Source: Minisyncoccota bacterium | GTDB taxonomy: Bacteria; Patescibacteriota; Minisyncoccia; Phycocordibacterales; CSBR16-193 | Length of the DNA stretch: 64,000 nucleotides | Direction of reading: 5' to 3' | Assembly: GCA_040905715.1 (NCBI GenBank) | Contig: JBBDRA010000002.1 | Coordinates: 101,968 to 165,967 of the forward strand | In this document: one piece after another, positions 41,171 through 59,127 of the stretch | Position numbering within the stretch: the first letter of the stretch is position 1 | Layout: the number at the start of each line of letters is the position of its first letter | The notes under the pieces: generated by a model | What the model saw: the letters and a program-made list of their open reading frames with translations, nothing else | Told to the model about the DNA's origin: nothing | Databases searched by the model: none | Made by a program: the position numbers and the translations under genes

Positions 41171-41222
41171 TGTACTTAATTTTCTGATGCCCCGCTGGCT
41201 GGCGGAGAACTAGAAAAAGAAG

Positions 41223-41250
41223 TGCTCCCGGCAGGAATCGGCCCCGCGAG
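41223..41250. repeat. Partial duplicate of the tRNA-Arg(GCG) 3-prime end (att-like)
   Basis: gtgctcccggcaggaatcg repeats the sequence at 41499-41517. Confidence 0.6.
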
Positions 41251-41257
41251 TTCTAAG

Positions 41258-41400
41258 TATTTTGCTTCGCTCAAACAAATAAGGCTTCTTGTGTTTTCTT
41301 CGAAAACATCCGCGAAGCGAATGTGTGCTTTTTTGGATACGGAACGTTACACTTGCAAAAAACACACATTCGCCTGGCCGGCGCCTCACATCGCTACGCG
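41258..41400. repeat. Repeat element copy A (about 135 bp; second copy at 51364-51500)
   Basis: Shares a 53-nt exact core cttcttgtgttttcttcgaaaacatccgcgaagcgaatgtgtgcttttttgga and a conserved long hairpin cgaatgtgtg...cacacattcg. Confidence 0.6.
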
Positions 41401-41465
41401 ATATGTTCCGGCGCTTCGATTCCTGACGAAAGTGCAGAAATGCACTTTCTCCGGAAACACAAATT

Positions 41466-41496
41466 AAAAAAACCAGGTAAAACCTGATTTTTTAAT
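41466..41496. terminator. Hairpin ccaggt-aaa-acctg with flanking A/T runs, immediately 3-prime of the tRNA on the minus strand
   Basis: Seen in sequence. Confidence 0.4.
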
Positions 41497-41499
41497 TTG

Positions 41500-41571
41500 T
41501 GCTCCCGGCAGGAATCGAACCTACATTACGAGCTCCGCAAGCCCGCGTTCTATCCGTTGAACTACGGGAGC
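41500..41571 (-). tRNA. tRNA-Arg (anticodon read as GCG)
   Basis: Acceptor GCTCCCG/CGGGAGC, D-arm GTTC-AACGGATA-GAAC, anticodon stem CGGGC/GCTCG with loop TTGCGGA (G37), T-arm GTAGG-TTCGATT-CCTGC. Confidence 0.75.
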
Positions 41572-41720
41572 AAATGAGGGGTATCGCGCAAAAGCATACT
41601 CTCTGGCAAGTGAGGGATACGAGAAAACTCGTTTTCATCGTATCACGAACGAAGTCAGAGAAAGCTATGCGACTTTGTTTTCTTTTGAACAGCTTTGCTT
41701 ACGGGAGCAAGGCTTGCGTC
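41565..41720. repeat. tRNA-Arg(GCG) leader region, inverted homolog of 45996-46130, including a partial tRNA 5-prime copy
   Basis: Over 90% identity in reverse complement to the leader of tRNA-Arg(TCT). The ttgctcccgtaag copy is at 41698-41710. Confidence 0.6.
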
Positions 41721-45829: not shown

Positions 45830-46194
45830 GAATTTGCTCCCGTAAGTAAACTTGCTCTGACAACGCTCGGACGGTACGTAAACGCGTTTCCGACCGCTCC
45901 TCGCTTGTCAGAGTAAGCGAAGCTTTCGAAAGCTACATTCGCGGATCATGCAAAAGCAAGCACCACCAGGGCACTTCTTGTTTTCTAATTCACAGCGAAG
46001 CTGTTCATAAGAAAACAAAGTCGCATAGCTTTCTCTGACTTCGTTCGTGATACGATGAAAACGAGTTTTCTCGTATCACTCACTTGTCAGAGAGTATGCT
46101 TTTGCGTGATGCCGTTCACTTGCTCCCGTAAGCGAAGCTTTCGGGATCTGCGTTCGAAGAAAATAGAAGTAAACTTCAATTTTGCTTCTCACTT
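45830..46194. repeat. tRNA-Arg(TCT) leader with two partial tRNA 5-prime copies and nested palindromes
   Basis: ttgctcccgtaag at 45834-45846 and 46119-46131. Palindromes agctttcgaaagct (45921-45934) and aaacgcgttt. 45996-46130 is the inverted homolog of 41565-41700. Confidence 0.6.
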
Positions 46195-46266: not shown

Positions 46267-46271
46267 CAATG

Positions 46272-46318
46272 AAACACACGGATGTTTTTGAAAAAAACAT
46301 CCGTGTGTTTCGTATTTT
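46272..46318 (+). terminator. Intrinsic terminator (18-bp stem aaacacacggatgttttt/aaaaacatccgtgtgttt) after the tRNA
   Basis: Seen in sequence. Confidence 0.55.
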
Positions 46319-46422
46319 GGAGTAGGAATCGAACCGGGAAGGGGTCGGGGAACGGTAGTTCCCCGTGAAGGAAAGGTGGAAAAACCGTGGGTTTTCCAGA
46401 TGTTCTTTCCTGCCGGGAGCAC
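46319..46422 (+). repeat. tRNA-associated structured element, copy 1 (GGGAAGGGGTCGGG hairpin family)
   Basis: Left flank ggagtaggaatcgaacc, hairpin cggggaac-ggta-gttccccg, second hairpin ggaaaaacc-gtg-ggttttcc, right flank cctgccgggagcac (tRNA 3-prime duplicate). Confidence 0.6.
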
Positions 46423-53838: not shown

Positions 53839-54414
53839 ATGACTACGCCAACGGTTACATTTTCACCGGTAAATATAGAGAAGCGCAAAGAGACCGATAT
53901 TCGAACGGGTGATACTATTCGTGTACATACGAAGATCATCGAGAAAGGTAAAACCCGAACCCAGCCTTTTGAAGGTTTGGTGATCGCGCGCAAGCACGGT
54001 GCTGAGCCCGGTGCTACATTTACCGTTCGCCGAACATCTGAAGGATACGGTGTTGAAAAGATCTTTCCGCTTTACTCTCCAAACATTGATAAGATCGAGA
54101 TACTGCGTCGATCAAAGGTTCGCCAAAGCAACATTTATCACGTTCGTGAGAAGGTGGCTAAGCAGATCCGTCGAGAGATGCGCCGCATGATGTTGATGGG
54201 CGAGCTTGCATTCTCTGAATCTGAAGAACAAGAAGCAACGAAAGCAGAAGAGGCGGTGGCAGCTCCGACGTCGCAAGACGAGTCGGAGCCCCGACCCGAG
54301 GGCGTCGGGGAAGCAGCCGAGGAAGCAACAACTAACGAGACACAATCAGAAACACAACCAGATGAGTCACCGGTCGAAGAAAAACAATCCGGTGGAGAAG
54401 AAACAAAAGAATAA
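53839..54414 (+). CDS. rplS: 50S ribosomal protein L19 with an acidic C-terminal extension
   Basis: L19 core (GDTIRVHTKIIEKGKTRTQPFEGLVIARK) followed by a Glu-rich tail of about 70 aa. Confidence 0.85.
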   Translation: MTTPTVTFSPVNIEKRKETDIRTGDTIRVHTKIIEKGKTRTQPFEGLVIARKHGAEPGATFTVRRTSEGYGVEKIFPLYSPNIDKIEILRRSKVRQSNIYHVREKVAKQIRREMRRMMLMGELAFSESEEQEATKAEEAVAAPTSQDESEPRPEGVGEAAEEATTNETQSETQPDESPVEEKQSGGEETKE

Positions 54415-54420
54415 GTAGAA

Positions 54421-54450
54421 AGTAAATCCACAGCTTGTGGATTTACTTTT
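54421..54450 (+). terminator. Hairpin agtaaatccacagcttgtggatttact plus T-run after rplS
   Basis: Seen in sequence. Confidence 0.5.
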
Positions 54451-54482
54451 ATCTAATTTGGTATACAATAAACACTAGAGAT

Positions 54483-55130
54483 ATGAGACGTGGATCAAAA
54501 CCAAAAGGGAAGGTGCGGATACAGTGGTCGTCTAACTTTGCGTATGCAATTGGTTTGCTTGCGGCAGATGGATGTTTATCAAAAGATGGTAGGCATATTG
54601 ACGTAACATCGAATGATTACGATCAACTTGAAAATTTTATTAAAGCTCTTGATATTGACGTAAAAATTACTCAAAAATCATCCGGAAGAGGGTATACAAG
54701 TTGGCATGTTCAGTTCAGTGATGTTCTTTTTTATAAGTTTCTTACTGAAATAGGTATAACCTCAGCAAAGAGTAAGACATTAAGAAAGCTTGATATTCCC
54801 GACGAATACTTTTTTGATTTTTTAAGAGGGGAATTTGATGGGGATGGACATTTTTATAGTTATTGGGATAAGCGATGGACGAATAGTTATATGTTTTATT
54901 TAACTTTTATTGGTGCAAGTCAGAAATTTCTTGAATGGATTTCACAAACTAATGAGCGTCTCATTGGTATAAAAGCGAATGTAATTTTTTGTAAAAAATC
55001 AAAGGTATATCAGTTACGTTATGCAAAAGAAAGCACTCTGGAAATAATCAATAAAATGTATTATACTTCCAGCGCACTTCATTTGAGGAGAAAAAAGAAA
55101 AAGATAGATGCTTTAGTAGTGCCTCGATAA
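54483..55130 (+). CDS. Free-standing double-motif LAGLIDADG homing endonuclease
   Basis: Motif 1 AYAIGLLAADGCL and motif 2 FLRGEFDGDGHF. AT-rich gene with its own ATG after the rplS terminator. Confidence 0.75.
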   Translation: MRRGSKPKGKVRIQWSSNFAYAIGLLAADGCLSKDGRHIDVTSNDYDQLENFIKALDIDVKITQKSSGRGYTSWHVQFSDVLFYKFLTEIGITSAKSKTLRKLDIPDEYFFDFLRGEFDGDGHFYSYWDKRWTNSYMFYLTFIGASQKFLEWISQTNERLIGIKANVIFCKKSKVYQLRYAKESTLEIINKMYYTSSALHLRRKKKKIDALVVPR

Positions 55131-55134
55131 TAAT

Positions 55135-55216
55135 GCCCAGGTGGCGGAATTGGTATACGCAATAGGTTGAGGGCCTATGCTCCTAGAGCGTGCGGGTTCA
55201 AGTCCCGCCCTGGGCA
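55135..55216 (+). tRNA. tRNA-Leu (anticodon GAG)
   Basis: Type II tRNA. Acceptor GCCCAGG/CCTGGGC, anticodon stem ATAGG/CCTAT with loop TTGAGGG (G37), variable arm GCTCCTAGAGCGT, T-arm GCGGG-TTCAAGT-CCCGC. Confidence 0.8.
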
Positions 55217-55259
55217 CAAAAGAACGAAGTGAATTTTGGGAACAGGGCTGCGAACTGTT

Positions 55260-55390
55260 TACGGAGTAAACAGGAGCTGGGACTTGGGGAAGGGGTCGGG
55301 AAACGGGAGTTTCCCGTGGAGGAAGGCAGCGACCGAAGGGAGTGTTGGAAAACCGCGGGTTTCCAAGTTAGTCTTGCCCTGGGCACAAAA
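55260..55390 (+). repeat. tRNA-associated structured element, copy 2, ending in a 15-nt duplicate of the tRNA-Leu 3-prime end
   Basis: Motif ggggaaggggtcgggaaacgggagtttcccgtggagg (55287-55322), second hairpin ggaaaacc-gcg-ggtttcc (55347-55364). gccctgggcacaaaa at 55376-55390 repeats 55207-55221. Confidence 0.65.
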
Positions 55391-55391
55391 A

Positions 55392-55418
55392 AAGACCAGC
55401 ATCAAGCTGGTCTTTTTT
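55392..55418 (+). terminator. Intrinsic terminator (agaccagc/gctggtct plus T6)
   Basis: Seen in sequence. Confidence 0.55.
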
Positions 55419-55510
55419 ATATGTTATCCTTTGAATTTCTTAAGTTAAACAAGGTATAATAATACCAACATATTCAGTACTAATGAGTGTACGCTAACTA
55501 GAGCATTTAC

Positions 55511-57058
55511 ATGATAACAAATAAACTTCTTTCATATATTAAAGATGAACGGGCACGAGGTGTTTCTGAGGCTCAGATCCGAAAAACTCTCATGGCTCAA
55601 GGTGGCTGGCATCAAGATGATCTCAAAGAGGCATTCCAAGCTGTGCAGAAATCGGTCGCCCAGAAAGATACTCCACAAAAGAGCGCAAAAGCGCCAGCTT
55701 CTCAGTCTGCCGCTAAACAAGCATCCGCCTCTCGAGTGAGTGACCCAATAAAGAAGAACAAAAAAGATGAAAAGTTTGGTAAGGATCTTGATTCTCAGTC
55801 TGAGAGCATGCAGACGAACAGAAAGCAACAGGCAGTAATTCCGTCTCATTCATCTGTCGGTAGAAAAGTTGTTTTATTTTTAGTAGCACTTCTTGTGTTT
55901 GTCGGTGTAGCTGTTGGCGGAGTGGCTGCGTACACGTCCATTATCGGAGGGGTAAACGAAGATTTGTCAAAAGATGAGATTTTATCTTCTGCGTTCTCAA
56001 ATTTCTCTGATGCAACCTCGTTGGAATACGAAGCTGTGTTAACTGTAGAGAGCGGTATCGATGGATCAAGGCCTCATTCTCTCCGCGTGAGCGCCGATGG
56101 AGTGTCAAGCATGGGCGCGGCTTTTAGCGATCTTACAATGCAGCATAAGGTATCTGTTGAATCAGAGACAGATGGTCAGGAACAAGGAGGGTCATTAATT
56201 GATACCGAGGTAGAGATGCGTCTAGTAGATAAGATCCTCTACTTCTATGTTGAGCATGCCCCTGAGATGACAAGAGTGTTCTTGCCTATTTCTGAGCAAC
56301 AGTGGTTGCGCTCGCCGGAGGTGGTGGCTTCGGGACGAACTGGAAGTGAGAGCGGTATTGGTCTCGATGGATTTAAAGATGAGGCAACCAGGCGGTTCGT
56401 TATTGATTCTGTTAAATTAGCCCGAGAGCATCGGGTGTACAGTATTACGGAAATAGAGGAAGAAAGAATAAATGGTGAAGGTGTACACGCTTTTAGTATT
56501 CGTTTTCATCCACAAAACATAGAGGTGTTTTTCAATGACGTGGTTGCTATGGTTTATGAGCGAGAAGATCTGCCGGATGAAGTGAGGGAAAGCGTGATAA
56601 CCTGGGCCGAGAGGAAAATTCAGCTTTCAGAAGAAGAACGAGCGCAAGAGATAGAACGCATAAAACAAGTCACTGATAATTTAGAAACCGAGATCATGAT
56701 CGGGAAGAGAGATATGCTGCCGCGTCGTATCCGTATTTCTTTCGATGGCGATGTGCCTGGTGAGCTTGTGGATCAAGGAGGTGTGAATTCTTTTGCATCG
56801 AGGGTGATCGGGAACGATCCACTGCGACGAAATGCAATGTCAGTCATCGGTTCTGCGTTTAATCCGGTCCGGGTAGCTGGTGCAGATTTTCCGCTTCTTC
56901 TCGATCTCGAGATCCGTTTTTCTGGCTTCAATGAATCGGTTAATGTAGAAGCGCCTGCCGACGCGATCGATTTTGAAGCTGCGATAAGAGATGCCCGCAT
57001 AGAAGGAGGAAGCGGCTCGGGAGATATGAGCACATCTTCAGAAGAAGTTGAGCTCTAG
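55511..57058 (+). CDS. Membrane-anchored hypothetical protein (Lys-rich cytoplasmic N-terminus, one TM helix, large extracytoplasmic domain)
   Basis: Translation features only. Confidence 0.45.
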   Translation: MITNKLLSYIKDERARGVSEAQIRKTLMAQGGWHQDDLKEAFQAVQKSVAQKDTPQKSAKAPASQSAAKQASASRVSDPIKKNKKDEKFGKDLDSQSESMQTNRKQQAVIPSHSSVGRKVVLFLVALLVFVGVAVGGVAAYTSIIGGVNEDLSKDEILSSAFSNFSDATSLEYEAVLTVESGIDGSRPHSLRVSADGVSSMGAAFSDLTMQHKVSVESETDGQEQGGSLIDTEVEMRLVDKILYFYVEHAPEMTRVFLPISEQQWLRSPEVVASGRTGSESGIGLDGFKDEATRRFVIDSVKLAREHRVYSITEIEEERINGEGVHAFSIRFHPQNIEVFFNDVVAMVYEREDLPDEVRESVITWAERKIQLSEEERAQEIERIKQVTDNLETEIMIGKRDMLPRRIRISFDGDVPGELVDQGGVNSFASRVIGNDPLRRNAMSVIGSAFNPVRVAGADFPLLLDLEIRFSGFNESVNVEAPADAIDFEAAIRDARIEGGSGSGDMSTSSEEVEL

Positions 57059-57084
57059 TTCTTAGTTCGTGGCGGACTATATTT

Positions 57085-57666
57085 ATGACTTTTTTTACAG
57101 GAAAAGGTGATGATGGCACTACTAAAACGTTCGGTTGCAATCAGCGAATATCAAAAAGCTCGGCTATTGCCGAGGCGCTTGGTACAGTCGATGAGCTCAA
57201 CTCATTTCTGGGTTTGCTTAAAGTGAAAGGCAGTGAGAGCAACGTGCTTGTGCCGAAAACGGAGGAAACCCTTGCCTCGCTTATTCATGCTATTCAGCAC
57301 GATCTGTTTATTGTCCAAGCAGAGCTTGCCGGAGCTGATAAAGCCATCGAGGAGGAAAAGGTGGTCAAGCTTGAGAAGATCATAAACACCATTGAACGCT
57401 CGCTCCCGGAGATCACGACGTTCTTTGTCTCCGGCGGAACCGAGCTTGCTGCGCTGTGTGATGTGGCTCGCACGATCACTCGGCGCGCCGAGCGCCGAGT
57501 GATCGCGGTGTACGACGGTTCGACAGACTCACCGCAGGCGAAGGGGCAAAAAGTAGATGCGCAGACCCTGGCCTATCTCAACCGCCTCTCCAGTATCTTT
57601 TATGCGTTGGCGCGACTTGTTAATCACCAGGCCGGAGTGAGTGAGGAGTCGCCGACGTATGTCTAG
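57085..57666 (+). CDS. PduO-type ATP:cob(I)alamin adenosyltransferase
   Basis: N-terminus MTFFTGKGDDGTT and overall length match the Cob_adeno_trans family. Confidence 0.75.
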   Translation: MTFFTGKGDDGTTKTFGCNQRISKSSAIAEALGTVDELNSFLGLLKVKGSESNVLVPKTEETLASLIHAIQHDLFIVQAELAGADKAIEEEKVVKLEKIINTIERSLPEITTFFVSGGTELAALCDVARTITRRAERRVIAVYDGSTDSPQAKGQKVDAQTLAYLNRLSSIFYALARLVNHQAGVSEESPTYV

Positions 57667-57755
57667 GCCCTGAGTATTAGGGTGTTGAGTCGGTATTGCA
57701 ATTATCCACAAGCAAATCTGTTTACCCTGTACTATTCCTGGGCTACTATTAAGTA

Positions 57756-58253
57756 ATGCCAGATGTTTCATGCAAAAAATGCGGTAATACTTTTTATGCA
57801 AAACCAAATTGGTTAAAGCGTGGCTACGGAAAGTTCTGCTCCATTAATTGTACTCGCCTGGCAAGCAGGAGGGGTAGTTGGAAAGCATGTTGCCTTTGCA
57901 AAGAAAAGGTCTACAAATCACTAAAAGATATCCGGCGGTCAAAGAGCGGGAACTTTTTTTGTAGCAAGCGGTGTAGTTTAAAATGGCTTAGGTCAAAACA
58001 ATTTGGCAGAAATCATGCAAATTGGAAGCACGGAAAATATGCTTACAGAGGGATGCTCCTTCGTAGTGCGTTGAGCAGAAAATGCAAATTATGCGGTCGT
58101 GACGACGAACGTATCTTAATAGTTCATCATATAGATAAAAATCGTGAAAATAACAAAATAGATAATCTCACTTGGCTTTGCCTGAACTGTCATTATTTAG
58201 TTCATAATTATTCAGAGGCTGAGGACCAATTTCTTGACAGTCTAAATACATAA
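57756..58253 (+). CDS. HNH endonuclease with an N-terminal Cys-rich zinc-ribbon repeat
   Basis: HNH core VHHIDKNRENNKIDNLTWLCLNCH. Two CxxC...C...C modules at the N-terminus. Confidence 0.7.
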   Translation: MPDVSCKKCGNTFYAKPNWLKRGYGKFCSINCTRLASRRGSWKACCLCKEKVYKSLKDIRRSKSGNFFCSKRCSLKWLRSKQFGRNHANWKHGKYAYRGMLLRSALSRKCKLCGRDDERILIVHHIDKNRENNKIDNLTWLCLNCHYLVHNYSEAEDQFLDSLNT

Positions 58254-58256
58254 ATT

Positions 58257-58763
58257 ATGGAAAGGAGTTGTGAAATATGTAAAGCGACGTTTAAAACAAA
58301 ACCTTATTTTATTCGGAAAGGGCAAGGGCGCTTTTGTTCTAAAAAATGTCAATACGAAAGTTTCAAAACTGGTTCAAGTATCACTTGCGATACCTGTAAG
58401 AAGAACGTCTATAGGAATAGGTCGGGCTTAGGTAGATCCAAGAGTAGGAAATTCTTTTGTTCAAAATCGTGCCAAACAAAATGGAGAAATACGCAGTACA
58501 GTAGAGAGAAACATTTAGGTTGGAAGGACGGCGTTTCGTCATATCGAAATGCCATGCTAAGAAATAATGAATCGCAAGAGTGCAAGTTTTGCAAAGAAGT
58601 CGATGTGCGAGTTCTTGTTGTCCACCATGTTGATGAGGATCGAACCAACAACAAACTGGAAAATCTTTGCTGGTTATGCCATAATTGCCACCACCTTGTT
58701 CACCATTGCAAAGGCGAGTCAGAAAAGATTCGCTCGATCATTGGTAAAGGCAAAGAACAGTAG
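58257..58763 (+). CDS. HNH endonuclease (tandem paralog)
   Basis: HNH core VHHVDEDRTNNKLENLCWLCHNCH. Same architecture as the preceding gene. Confidence 0.7.
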   Translation: MERSCEICKATFKTKPYFIRKGQGRFCSKKCQYESFKTGSSITCDTCKKNVYRNRSGLGRSKSRKFFCSKSCQTKWRNTQYSREKHLGWKDGVSSYRNAMLRNNESQECKFCKEVDVRVLVVHHVDEDRTNNKLENLCWLCHNCHHLVHHCKGESEKIRSIIGKGKEQ

Positions 58764-58850
58764 CATATGGTGCCTATGGTATAATGGTTATTACGGAAGC
58801 TTGTGGAGCTTCAAATTCCAGTTCAATTCTGGATAGGCACCCAGAATATA

Positions 58851-58882: not shown

Positions 58883-58898
58883 TAGTAAGAAGTTACCG

Positions 58899-58945
58899 GG
58901 AATCGAACGGGAAGGGGTCGGGAAAACTAGAGTTTTCCCGTGAAG
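58899..58945 (+). repeat. tRNA-associated structured element, copy 3 (partial, no adjacent tRNA)
   Basis: ggaatcgaac followed by gggaaggggtcgggaaaac-taga-gttttcccgtgaag. Confidence 0.55.
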
Positions 58946-59127
58946 TCTGCCTGCGGGCGCTGTCAGGGAAAGCTCTGCTTATGAATGGAATGAATTAGGA
59001 AACAAGCAATGCTCTTTGGGTATTTCCCAGAAGTGAGATAGCGACGGAATCCCGCTTTCGCGGGCTCAGCTTTTTCGGAGACTTATTCTCAGCCAAAATC
59101 ATATATAACCTGTGATACTATTCACTC

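Follow-up and report, generated by a model that had tools for sequence, protein, structure and literature searches.

Why do genes for predicted DNA endonucleases stand immediately in front of two tRNA genes on the chromosome of a Minisyncoccota bacterium? The locus lies in a stretch of 64,000 nucleotides (nt) of assembly GCA_040905715.1 (contig JBBDRA010000002.1, positions 101,968 to 165,967), which as a whole is called the window here and in whose coordinates positions are given. It contains one gene of the LAGLIDADG type, whose stop codon is followed after a gap of 4 nt by tRNA-Leu(GAG), and a tandem pair of HNH-type genes (HNH1 and HNH2), the second of which stops 6 nt before tRNA-His(GTG). 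We consider it probable that these are free-standing homing endonuclease genes (HEGs) from two unrelated families with predicted nuclease activity, each family using the 5' flank of a single tRNA gene (LAGLIDADG that of tRNA-Leu(GAG), HNH that of tRNA-His(GTG)). Two of the observations behind this answer are these: irrespective of the upstream gene, the position of each family with respect to its tRNA is constant at nucleotide scale, and the occupancy of the sites is polymorphic among relatives, where intact, degraded and absent states have all been seen for the LAGLIDADG gene.

The first-pass annotation of the window had described the three open reading frames (ORFs) correctly and at the right coordinates, and had suggested that they are selfish endonuclease genes homing at tRNA loci. 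The core of that suggestion is supported by the constancy of the sites together with their polymorphic occupancy, cleavage itself being a prediction. All three genes had been placed around tRNA-Leu, which is right for the LAGLIDADG gene; tRNA-His(GTG), however, had been overlooked, and since HNH2 ends so close to it, the HNH pair belongs to tRNA-His and not to tRNA-Leu. The features concerned are the following (lengths of proteins in amino acids, aa).

53839..54414, plus strand: rplS, ribosomal protein L19 (Pfam Ribosomal_L19, E 4e-32), the usual left flank of the LAGLIDADG site
54418..54450, plus strand: terminator-like hairpin ending the L19 transcript, a 15-pair stem followed by a T run; the inserted unit starts just after it
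54442..54469, plus strand: promoter-like site TTTACT-16-TACAAT found by consensus scan, preceding the LAGLIDADG ORF
54483..55130, plus strand: LAGLIDADG gene, 215 aa, intact, free-standing, single-chain with a double motif
55135..55217, plus strand: tRNA-Leu(GAG) (ARAGORN and Rfam), the fixed right-hand partner of the LAGLIDADG gene
57085..57666, plus strand: PduO-type cobalamin adenosyltransferase gene (Pfam Cob_adeno_trans, E 3e-44), which in this lineage flanks the HNH site on the left
57756..58253, plus strand: HNH1, 165 aa, two Cys4 zinc modules and a ββα-Me HNH domain
58257..58763, plus strand: HNH2, 168 aa, architecture as in HNH1
58770..58842, plus strand: tRNA-His(GTG), which the HNH family has as its fixed partner on the right

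The local gene order is uppS, pseudouridine synthase, rplS, the LAGLIDADG gene, tRNA-Leu(GAG), a 515-aa protein (without Pfam or NCBIfam match), the adenosyltransferase, HNH1, HNH2, tRNA-His(GTG) and Nudix genes, where tRNA-His(GTG) comes before a hairpin and the third copy of a structured element described below. No Rfam intron family was matched at the three endonuclease genes, and L19, the adenosyltransferase gene, tRNA-Leu and tRNA-His are all intact, so that the endonuclease genes are free-standing, outside introns and inteins, as had been proposed.

The endonuclease families and their tRNA partners

The LAGLIDADG protein passes the Pfam LAGLIDADG_3 threshold (E 8e-8; 32.8 bits against a curated cut-off of 22.5) and carries the two motifs IGLLAADGC and LRGEFDGDG; its catalytic aspartates, D29 and D121, are invariant among 27 homologs. 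An AlphaFold model (pLDDT 92, pTM 0.88) predicts a two-domain LAGLIDADG fold, with the pseudo-symmetric αββαββα unit present twice. The top fold match of the model in the PDB is I-Tsp061I (2DCH; TM 0.72-0.75, Foldseek E 7e-12), which is also the best sequence match of the protein (E 8e-8). I-DmoI, I-SceI and I-AniI follow, and WhiA and bI3 maturase are also among the fold matches.

The search for homologs of this protein returned at least 2,144 protein clusters at E <= 0.001, the best 120 of which are about 210-260 aa long and mostly 52-62% identical, and at least 596 species-representative genomes have a relative. Site constancy was counted in the best 80 genome loci, 75 of which were informative, having enough downstream sequence. 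Without exception in these 75, tRNA-Leu(GAG) starts between -44 and +31 nt from the stop of the LAGLIDADG ORF. L19 is encoded upstream in 73 of the 80 loci; in L009 and L010 the adjacency to tRNA-Leu is kept though the upstream gene is not L19.

Occupancy was determined in relatives picked through L19, blind to the endonuclease, which gave 46 distinct loci where tRNA-Leu(GAG) is found downstream of L19. Seven of these have the LAGLIDADG gene, 31 have a spacer of 2-258 nt, and ordinary unrelated genes fill the place in the remaining 8. One of the seven occupied loci (L141) carries a degraded copy in three ORF fragments, the first motif being lost, and in the empty locus L013 the L19 stop lies just 2 nt before tRNA-Leu, with no LAGLIDADG gene between. 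Alleles that lack the endonuclease genes, for which the first-pass annotation had advised a search, do exist therefore, both here and in ten adenosyltransferase/tRNA-His loci (see below). In 8 loci, L19 and tRNA-Leu are separated by a larger insert of 727-960 nt, and these inserts had been candidates for other endonuclease genes; those examined turned out to be ordinary genes, coding for an inositol-monophosphatase-like protein, an ion channel on the opposite strand and a small helix-rich protein. A search of 46 empty spacers with a hidden Markov model of the family found no significant LAGLIDADG remnant (best E 0.2). As a separate observation, two same-strain contigs from independent assemblies (L262, L263) end at the L19/LAGLIDADG junction or inside the ORF, and these assembly breaks might reflect population heterogeneity at the LAGLIDADG site.

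All 44 sequences compared in the HNH family have the residues C110, C113, H124, N137, C142, C145, H146 and H150, and at least 90% have H125; HNH1 and HNH2 both keep all conserved HNH/zinc residues. Both also have two N-terminal Cys4 modules (C6, C9, C28, C32 and C45, C48, C69, C73), which match FCS/MYM/TRASH zinc fingers weakly. HNH1 passes the Pfam HNH profile PF01844 (23.6 against 21.4), and HNH2 stays just below the HNH_3 cut-off (20.8 against 24.8). The structure model (pLDDT 90.9) predicts a ββα-metal fold, its top fold matches being the HNH domains of McrA, Cap5, IscB and Cas9, all at E >= 0.017.

At least 89 HNH homologs were found, and all complete copies that could be placed (L011, L013, L015, L025, L088, L169) are located directly 5' of tRNA-His(GTG), often with an overlap of 14-20 nt. 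This is also the case in L011 and L015, where the upstream genes are unrelated; in L159 the contig ends inside an eighth copy, and no tRNA is visible there. When tRNA-His sites were collected regardless of HNH, 3 of 48 were occupied. The spacer between adenosyltransferase gene and tRNA-His measures 6-62 nt in the ten distinct empty loci; one HNH gene lengthens it to 534-551 nt, and two to 1014-1103 nt. For a strain-level empty tRNA-His site, no record of the exact adenosyltransferase protein was found. Directly 5' of tRNA-His(GTG), the window and each of the ten distinct empty alleles have the three bases ATG, the remaining spacer being variable (loci named for this observation: L001, L004, L031, L062, L083, L087, L089, L161 and window positions 58764-58769).

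Tandem HNH pairs occur in the window and in L013. HNH1 and HNH2 are not mutual closest relatives in the distance tree (HNH1 is 58% identical to homolog P0122 and 44% to HNH2), and local duplication is therefore unlikely; judging from this tree, the pair most likely represents two independent arrivals at one site, with an old partnership as the alternative. The GC content at four-fold-degenerate third positions was 0.29 in HNH1, 0.50 in HNH2 and 0.48 in the background; with 52 codons counted in each gene, the difference weakly hints that the tRNA-proximal HNH2 has been resident longer.

At least 323 relatives with the two-finger-plus-HNH architecture are also present on viral contigs, at 29-45% identity. 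A tRNA was found within 500 nt in 51 of 80 viral loci, and in 11 a co-oriented tRNA starts at the ORF stop. Since the viral relatives cluster at tRNAs as well, the tRNA habit is a family trait common to phages and these bacteria. Among 2.9 million IMG/VR viral contigs, on the other hand, no relative of the LAGLIDADG family was found.

Horizontal movement and the competing explanations

The history of the LAGLIDADG gene is decoupled from that of its flanks. Its pairwise distances do not follow those of L19 (Spearman 0.016, a value reached by 206 of 500 permutations); the distances of L19 and pseudouridine synthase are correlated (0.445; 0 of 500 permutations), and LAGLIDADG against pseudouridine synthase gives a weak vertical signal (0.18; 7 of 500). 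The clearest pair is L004/L018, in which the LAGLIDADG proteins are 87% identical while the L19 proteins differ at 41% of sites and the pseudouridine synthases at 44%. At the DNA level these two loci share a stretch of 828 nt with 83% identity, which begins about 30 nt past the L19 stop and ends exactly with the 3' end of tRNA-Leu, and the sequence flanking it is essentially unalignable. The shared segment contains the whole tRNA-Leu gene; this tRNA is conserved anyway, so identity alone cannot prove its co-transfer. In the pair L018/L020, conversely, near-identical hosts (L19 distance 0.06) have LAGLIDADG proteins that differ at 34% of sites. Beside its decay in L141, the LAGLIDADG gene thus shows horizontal movement, and these comparisons point to a cassette that would extend from just past the terminator of the upstream gene to the 3' end of the tRNA. 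The invasion-decay-loss cycle of HEGs, connected with the names of Goddard and Burt, is reportedly established theory; the intact, degraded and absent states, the replacement at the same site and the constraint on the protein would agree with such a cycle of a re-invading HEG.

The composition of the genes had been noted earlier as unusual, and this was confirmed: the three endonuclease genes are the three ORFs of lowest GC among the 60 of the window (0.336, 0.386 and 0.398 against a background of 0.482 +/- 0.027; z = -5.3, -3.5 and -3.0). As a mark of recent arrival, the AT-richness had to be given up. It is a family-wide trait, since the AT content of the LAGLIDADG gene exceeds that of its flanks in every one of 76 related loci, on average by 7.6 points, and its GC follows that of the host (r = 0.86, slope 0.67).

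It should be emphasized that several results weigh against the homing explanation. The dependence of GC on the host is one of them. The ratio of non-synonymous to synonymous substitution rates (dN/dS) of the LAGLIDADG gene is 0.05-0.09 in the closest pairs, with a median of 0.14, which means strong purifying selection, and the mean protein distance (0.43, against 0.40 for L19) shows that the two proteins are about equally conserved. Low dN/dS, L19-like conservation and host-matched GC are also expected of a long-resident gene that is useful to the host. Purifying selection is thus of the housekeeping kind; strict conservation in all relatives, which the first-pass annotation had named beside it as a sign against selfish genes, is clearly not found. 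The left homology arm that homing needs is poorly conserved at the DNA level. No position in tRNA-Leu that could act as an "immunity" nucleotide is fixed between 84 occupied and 46 empty alleles; the differences seen, at the acceptor pair 2:71 and in the T-stem, may follow host lineage. No empty site appeared within the population, as the same-strain contigs with identical L19 all carry the LAGLIDADG gene. In the HNH family, the evidence for mobility consists of presence/absence and site constancy; the 7 HNH loci are all 41-58% identical to the window genes and contain no pair indicating recent transfer.

The LAGLIDADG protein could instead be a domesticated host factor that binds DNA or RNA sequence-specifically at the adjacent tRNA-Leu(GAG) gene or its transcript, comparable to WhiA and bI3 maturase, which are descended from LAGLIDADG nucleases and both appear among its fold matches. 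The strong constraint and the GC tracking would suit such a role, as would a relative in at least 596 species genomes with the position always alike, and a 3' end of the ORF that overlaps the tRNA promoter or the tRNA itself. We nevertheless regard domestication as unlikely. To our knowledge, the known domesticated LAGLIDADG proteins have lost their catalytic Asp residues, and here both D29 and D121 are invariant. Furthermore, 39 of the 46 relatives selected through L19 do without the gene and keep tRNA-Leu(GAG), the L141 copy is degraded, and the tree is decoupled from the flanking genes, with clear recent transfer between hosts.

It is quite improbable that the genes are ordinary accessory genes inherited vertically, whose tRNA adjacency would be conserved synteny and whose patchiness would come from repeated deletion, in the absence of any homing. 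The order L19-gene-tRNA-Leu in 73 of 80 loci, the host-matched GC and the weak correlation with pseudouridine synthase speak for it; adjacency at nucleotide scale even with a different upstream gene, the L004/L018 cassette between unalignable flanks, and near-identical hosts with divergent copies do not. Moreover, two unrelated nuclease families share the habit at two tRNAs, and the phage HNH relatives behave likewise.

The genes could finally be cargo or remnants of phages or integrative elements, as tRNA genes are classic integration sites, the HNH architecture has its many viral relatives and short repeats of tRNA 3' ends lie nearby, but integrase-mediated insertions leave their repeats at the 3' side of tRNAs while these genes stand on the 5' side, the insert consists of the endonuclease ORF(s) only (about 535-550 nt per HNH gene, no other phage genes) and the LAGLIDADG family lacks viral relatives, which makes this origin highly improbable.

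Proposed tolerance of the sites and other tRNA-linked elements

If the genes are HEGs, the enzyme, whose activity is inferred, would cleave alleles that lack the HEG, within or next to the conserved tRNA gene or the tRNA promoter, and recombinational repair from an occupied allele would copy the HEG into them, the tRNA gene providing the homology arm on the right; donor DNA may come through natural DNA uptake. The position could be harmless to the host in two ways: the HEG would either bring a promoter that serves the tRNA too, or encode the tRNA promoter in its own 3' end. Release of the tRNA by RNase P would take the role that splicing has for intron- or intein-borne HEGs.

The window would be an example of the first way. 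The number of promoter-like sites in the region, by consensus scan, equals the chance expectation, so the promoters assigned in the window are inferred ones. The next terminator after the L19 hairpin is at 55388-55418, past tRNA-Leu and the structured element; as there is none between the promoter-like site and this position, endonuclease gene and tRNA probably form one transcript, and the site at 54442-54469 probably drives tRNA-Leu as well.

The second way is suggested by the clade of L116, L132 and L136, in which the last codons of the ORF (…RKFAKAKEIYRMDGL*; RKFAKAKEI...) coincide with the tRNA-Leu promoter and leader TTGCAA-17-TAAAAT. The same promoter and leader are present in many empty alleles of this clade, and the element therefore sits directly upstream of the tRNA expression signals and reads into them. 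Similarly, the conserved C-terminal RKRLKI…RII stretch in L109 encodes TTGAAA-17-TATAAT, by inspection of the sequence itself. In both cases the tRNA would remain expressed and, by established tRNA processing, RNase P would free it from the transcript. A similarity of 42 nt between the empty L130 and the occupied L136, which had been considered as a deletion scar, is actually the tRNA-Leu promoter and leader; since these occur in many empty alleles of the clade and the endonuclease ORF reads through them, L130 gives no proof of loss.

A different kind of element is found at the 3' side of tRNA genes in the window. It is about 150-210 nt long, consists of a core (GGAAGGGGTCGGGRAA) and two hairpins, and follows tRNA-Arg(TCT), tRNA-Leu(GAG) and tRNA-His(GTG):

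46268-46420: structured element, copy 1
55218-55390: structured element, copy 2
~58895-59085: structured element, copy 3

Copies 1 and 2 are closed by a repeat of 15-18 nt of the tRNA 3' end in an attL/attR-like manner. No Rfam family matched the element, permissive-threshold Rfam searches giving chance-level matches only. The proposal that the endonucleases had generated these insert-and-duplication scars did not hold: the motif is missing from 175 of 176 related loci, 84 of which have the LAGLIDADG gene, and the element is present at tRNA-Arg(TCT), where there is no endonuclease gene. The repeats of tRNA 3' ends suggest by analogy site-specific integration of a tiny integrated element instead. 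A comparable layout was observed at tRNA-Arg(GCG) (41222-41571, minus strand), where an exact 18-nt repeat of the tRNA's own 3' end (gattcctgccgggagcac) lies about 240 nt downstream and the inserted sequence is different. A repeat of about 130 nt was also seen upstream of both tRNA-Arg genes (45985-46110, plus strand; 41580-41720, minus strand), with partial copies of tRNA 5' ends (ttgctcccgtaag) and a hairpin (gtgatacgatgaaaacgagttttctcgtatcac).

At the 5' side, a third family of about 230 aa came to light, with an HTH_23-like N-terminus, an uncharacterised C-terminal domain and the conserved motifs LYWxEG and GTIQIRV; Patescibacteria have at least 147 homologs of it. The family was noticed initially in L048, its ORF ending there a short way before tRNA-Gly(GCC), and it stops 6-10 nt before the same tRNA in three independent follow-up loci (L257, L258 and L259/L260), with the following ORFs:

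L257, 1501-2187: third-family ORF
L258, 1501-2190: third-family ORF
L259, 1501-2196: third-family ORF

This may be a further family of tRNA-docked elements. Another ORF, of 136 aa and without Pfam match, lies directly upstream of tRNA-Ile(TAT) in L070; its sequence (LTGIFLYWGEGTK …GTCNVKV) resembles the C-terminal half of the tRNA-Gly-associated family, by eye only. No nuclease domain and no PDB sequence match was detected in the tRNA-Gly and tRNA-Ile ORFs, and profile comparison found no relationship between them and the LAGLIDADG family. On these grounds we put forward, tentatively and with more doubt than conviction, that in Paceibacteria, site-specific selfish genes may quite generally find a "safe harbour" at the 5' edges of tRNA genes, in which tRNA processing would replace splicing, each tRNA gene would have its dedicated family, and the element would carry or encode the tRNA promoter and travel with the tRNA as a cassette.

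Significance and comparison with known systems

HEGs normally do their host no harm because they are concealed within self-splicing introns or inteins; those that stand free have been described mainly in phages, and HNH endonucleases have been reported in the tRNA region of phage T5. In the present case a LAGLIDADG family occupies a fixed tRNA 5' edge across hundreds of uncultured Paceibacteria species. If the mechanism outlined above is true, tRNA 5' flanks would be a third kind of harmless niche for HEGs, and endonuclease-driven gene conversion would be a route for horizontal replacement of tRNA genes across the class, in organisms whose gene exchange is considered to be low; strains could then also be told apart by whether they have the element. 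The more than 2,000 homologous LAGLIDADG clusters would make up a natural library, presumably recognising variants of one conserved target, which would be useful for the study of specificity evolution. In our literature searches we met no account of endonuclease families on chromosomes that are tied to the 5' edge of particular tRNA genes.

The nearest precedent in organization is SegB of phage T4, a free-standing GIY-YIG homing endonuclease within the T4 tRNA gene cluster (PMC2330249; review PMC2988022). Like the genes described here it is an HEG among tRNA genes that lacks the protection of an intron or intein, and it promotes the preferential inheritance of the tRNA region along with itself. 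The difference is that SegB belongs to the GIY-YIG type and to a phage, whereas the present genes are of the LAGLIDADG and HNH types and reside on a cellular chromosome; furthermore, a strict link of one family to one tRNA at nucleotide-scale spacing is not reported for SegB.

In the fold and in the presumed choice of highly conserved RNA genes as targets, the LAGLIDADG protein resembles the single-chain LAGLIDADG endonucleases in insertion sequences of rRNA genes of the Candidate Phyla Radiation (CPR; PMC11270868), which come from the same host group, and I-Tsp061I (2DCH), an archaeal rRNA-intron enzyme. The enzymes of the rRNA type are encoded within the rRNA gene, by sequence that is taken out of its RNA, whereas the LAGLIDADG gene studied here is outside an uninterrupted tRNA, at its 5' edge; the term "tRNA" does not occur in the CPR paper (PMC11270868).

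The HNH proteins are similar to the phage HNH homing endonucleases I-HmuI (PDB 1U3E) and T4 MobE (PMC2790892) in being free-standing and in joining a ββα-Me HNH domain to small DNA-binding modules. In sequence they match I-HmuI marginally (E 0.64), and the HNH core is closer to the zinc-bearing type of IscB, group II intron maturases and McrA than to I-HmuI. What sets the present HNH family apart from the phage enzymes is the combination of two FCS/MYM-like Cys4 modules, a chromosomal location and a fixed partner, tRNA-His(GTG).

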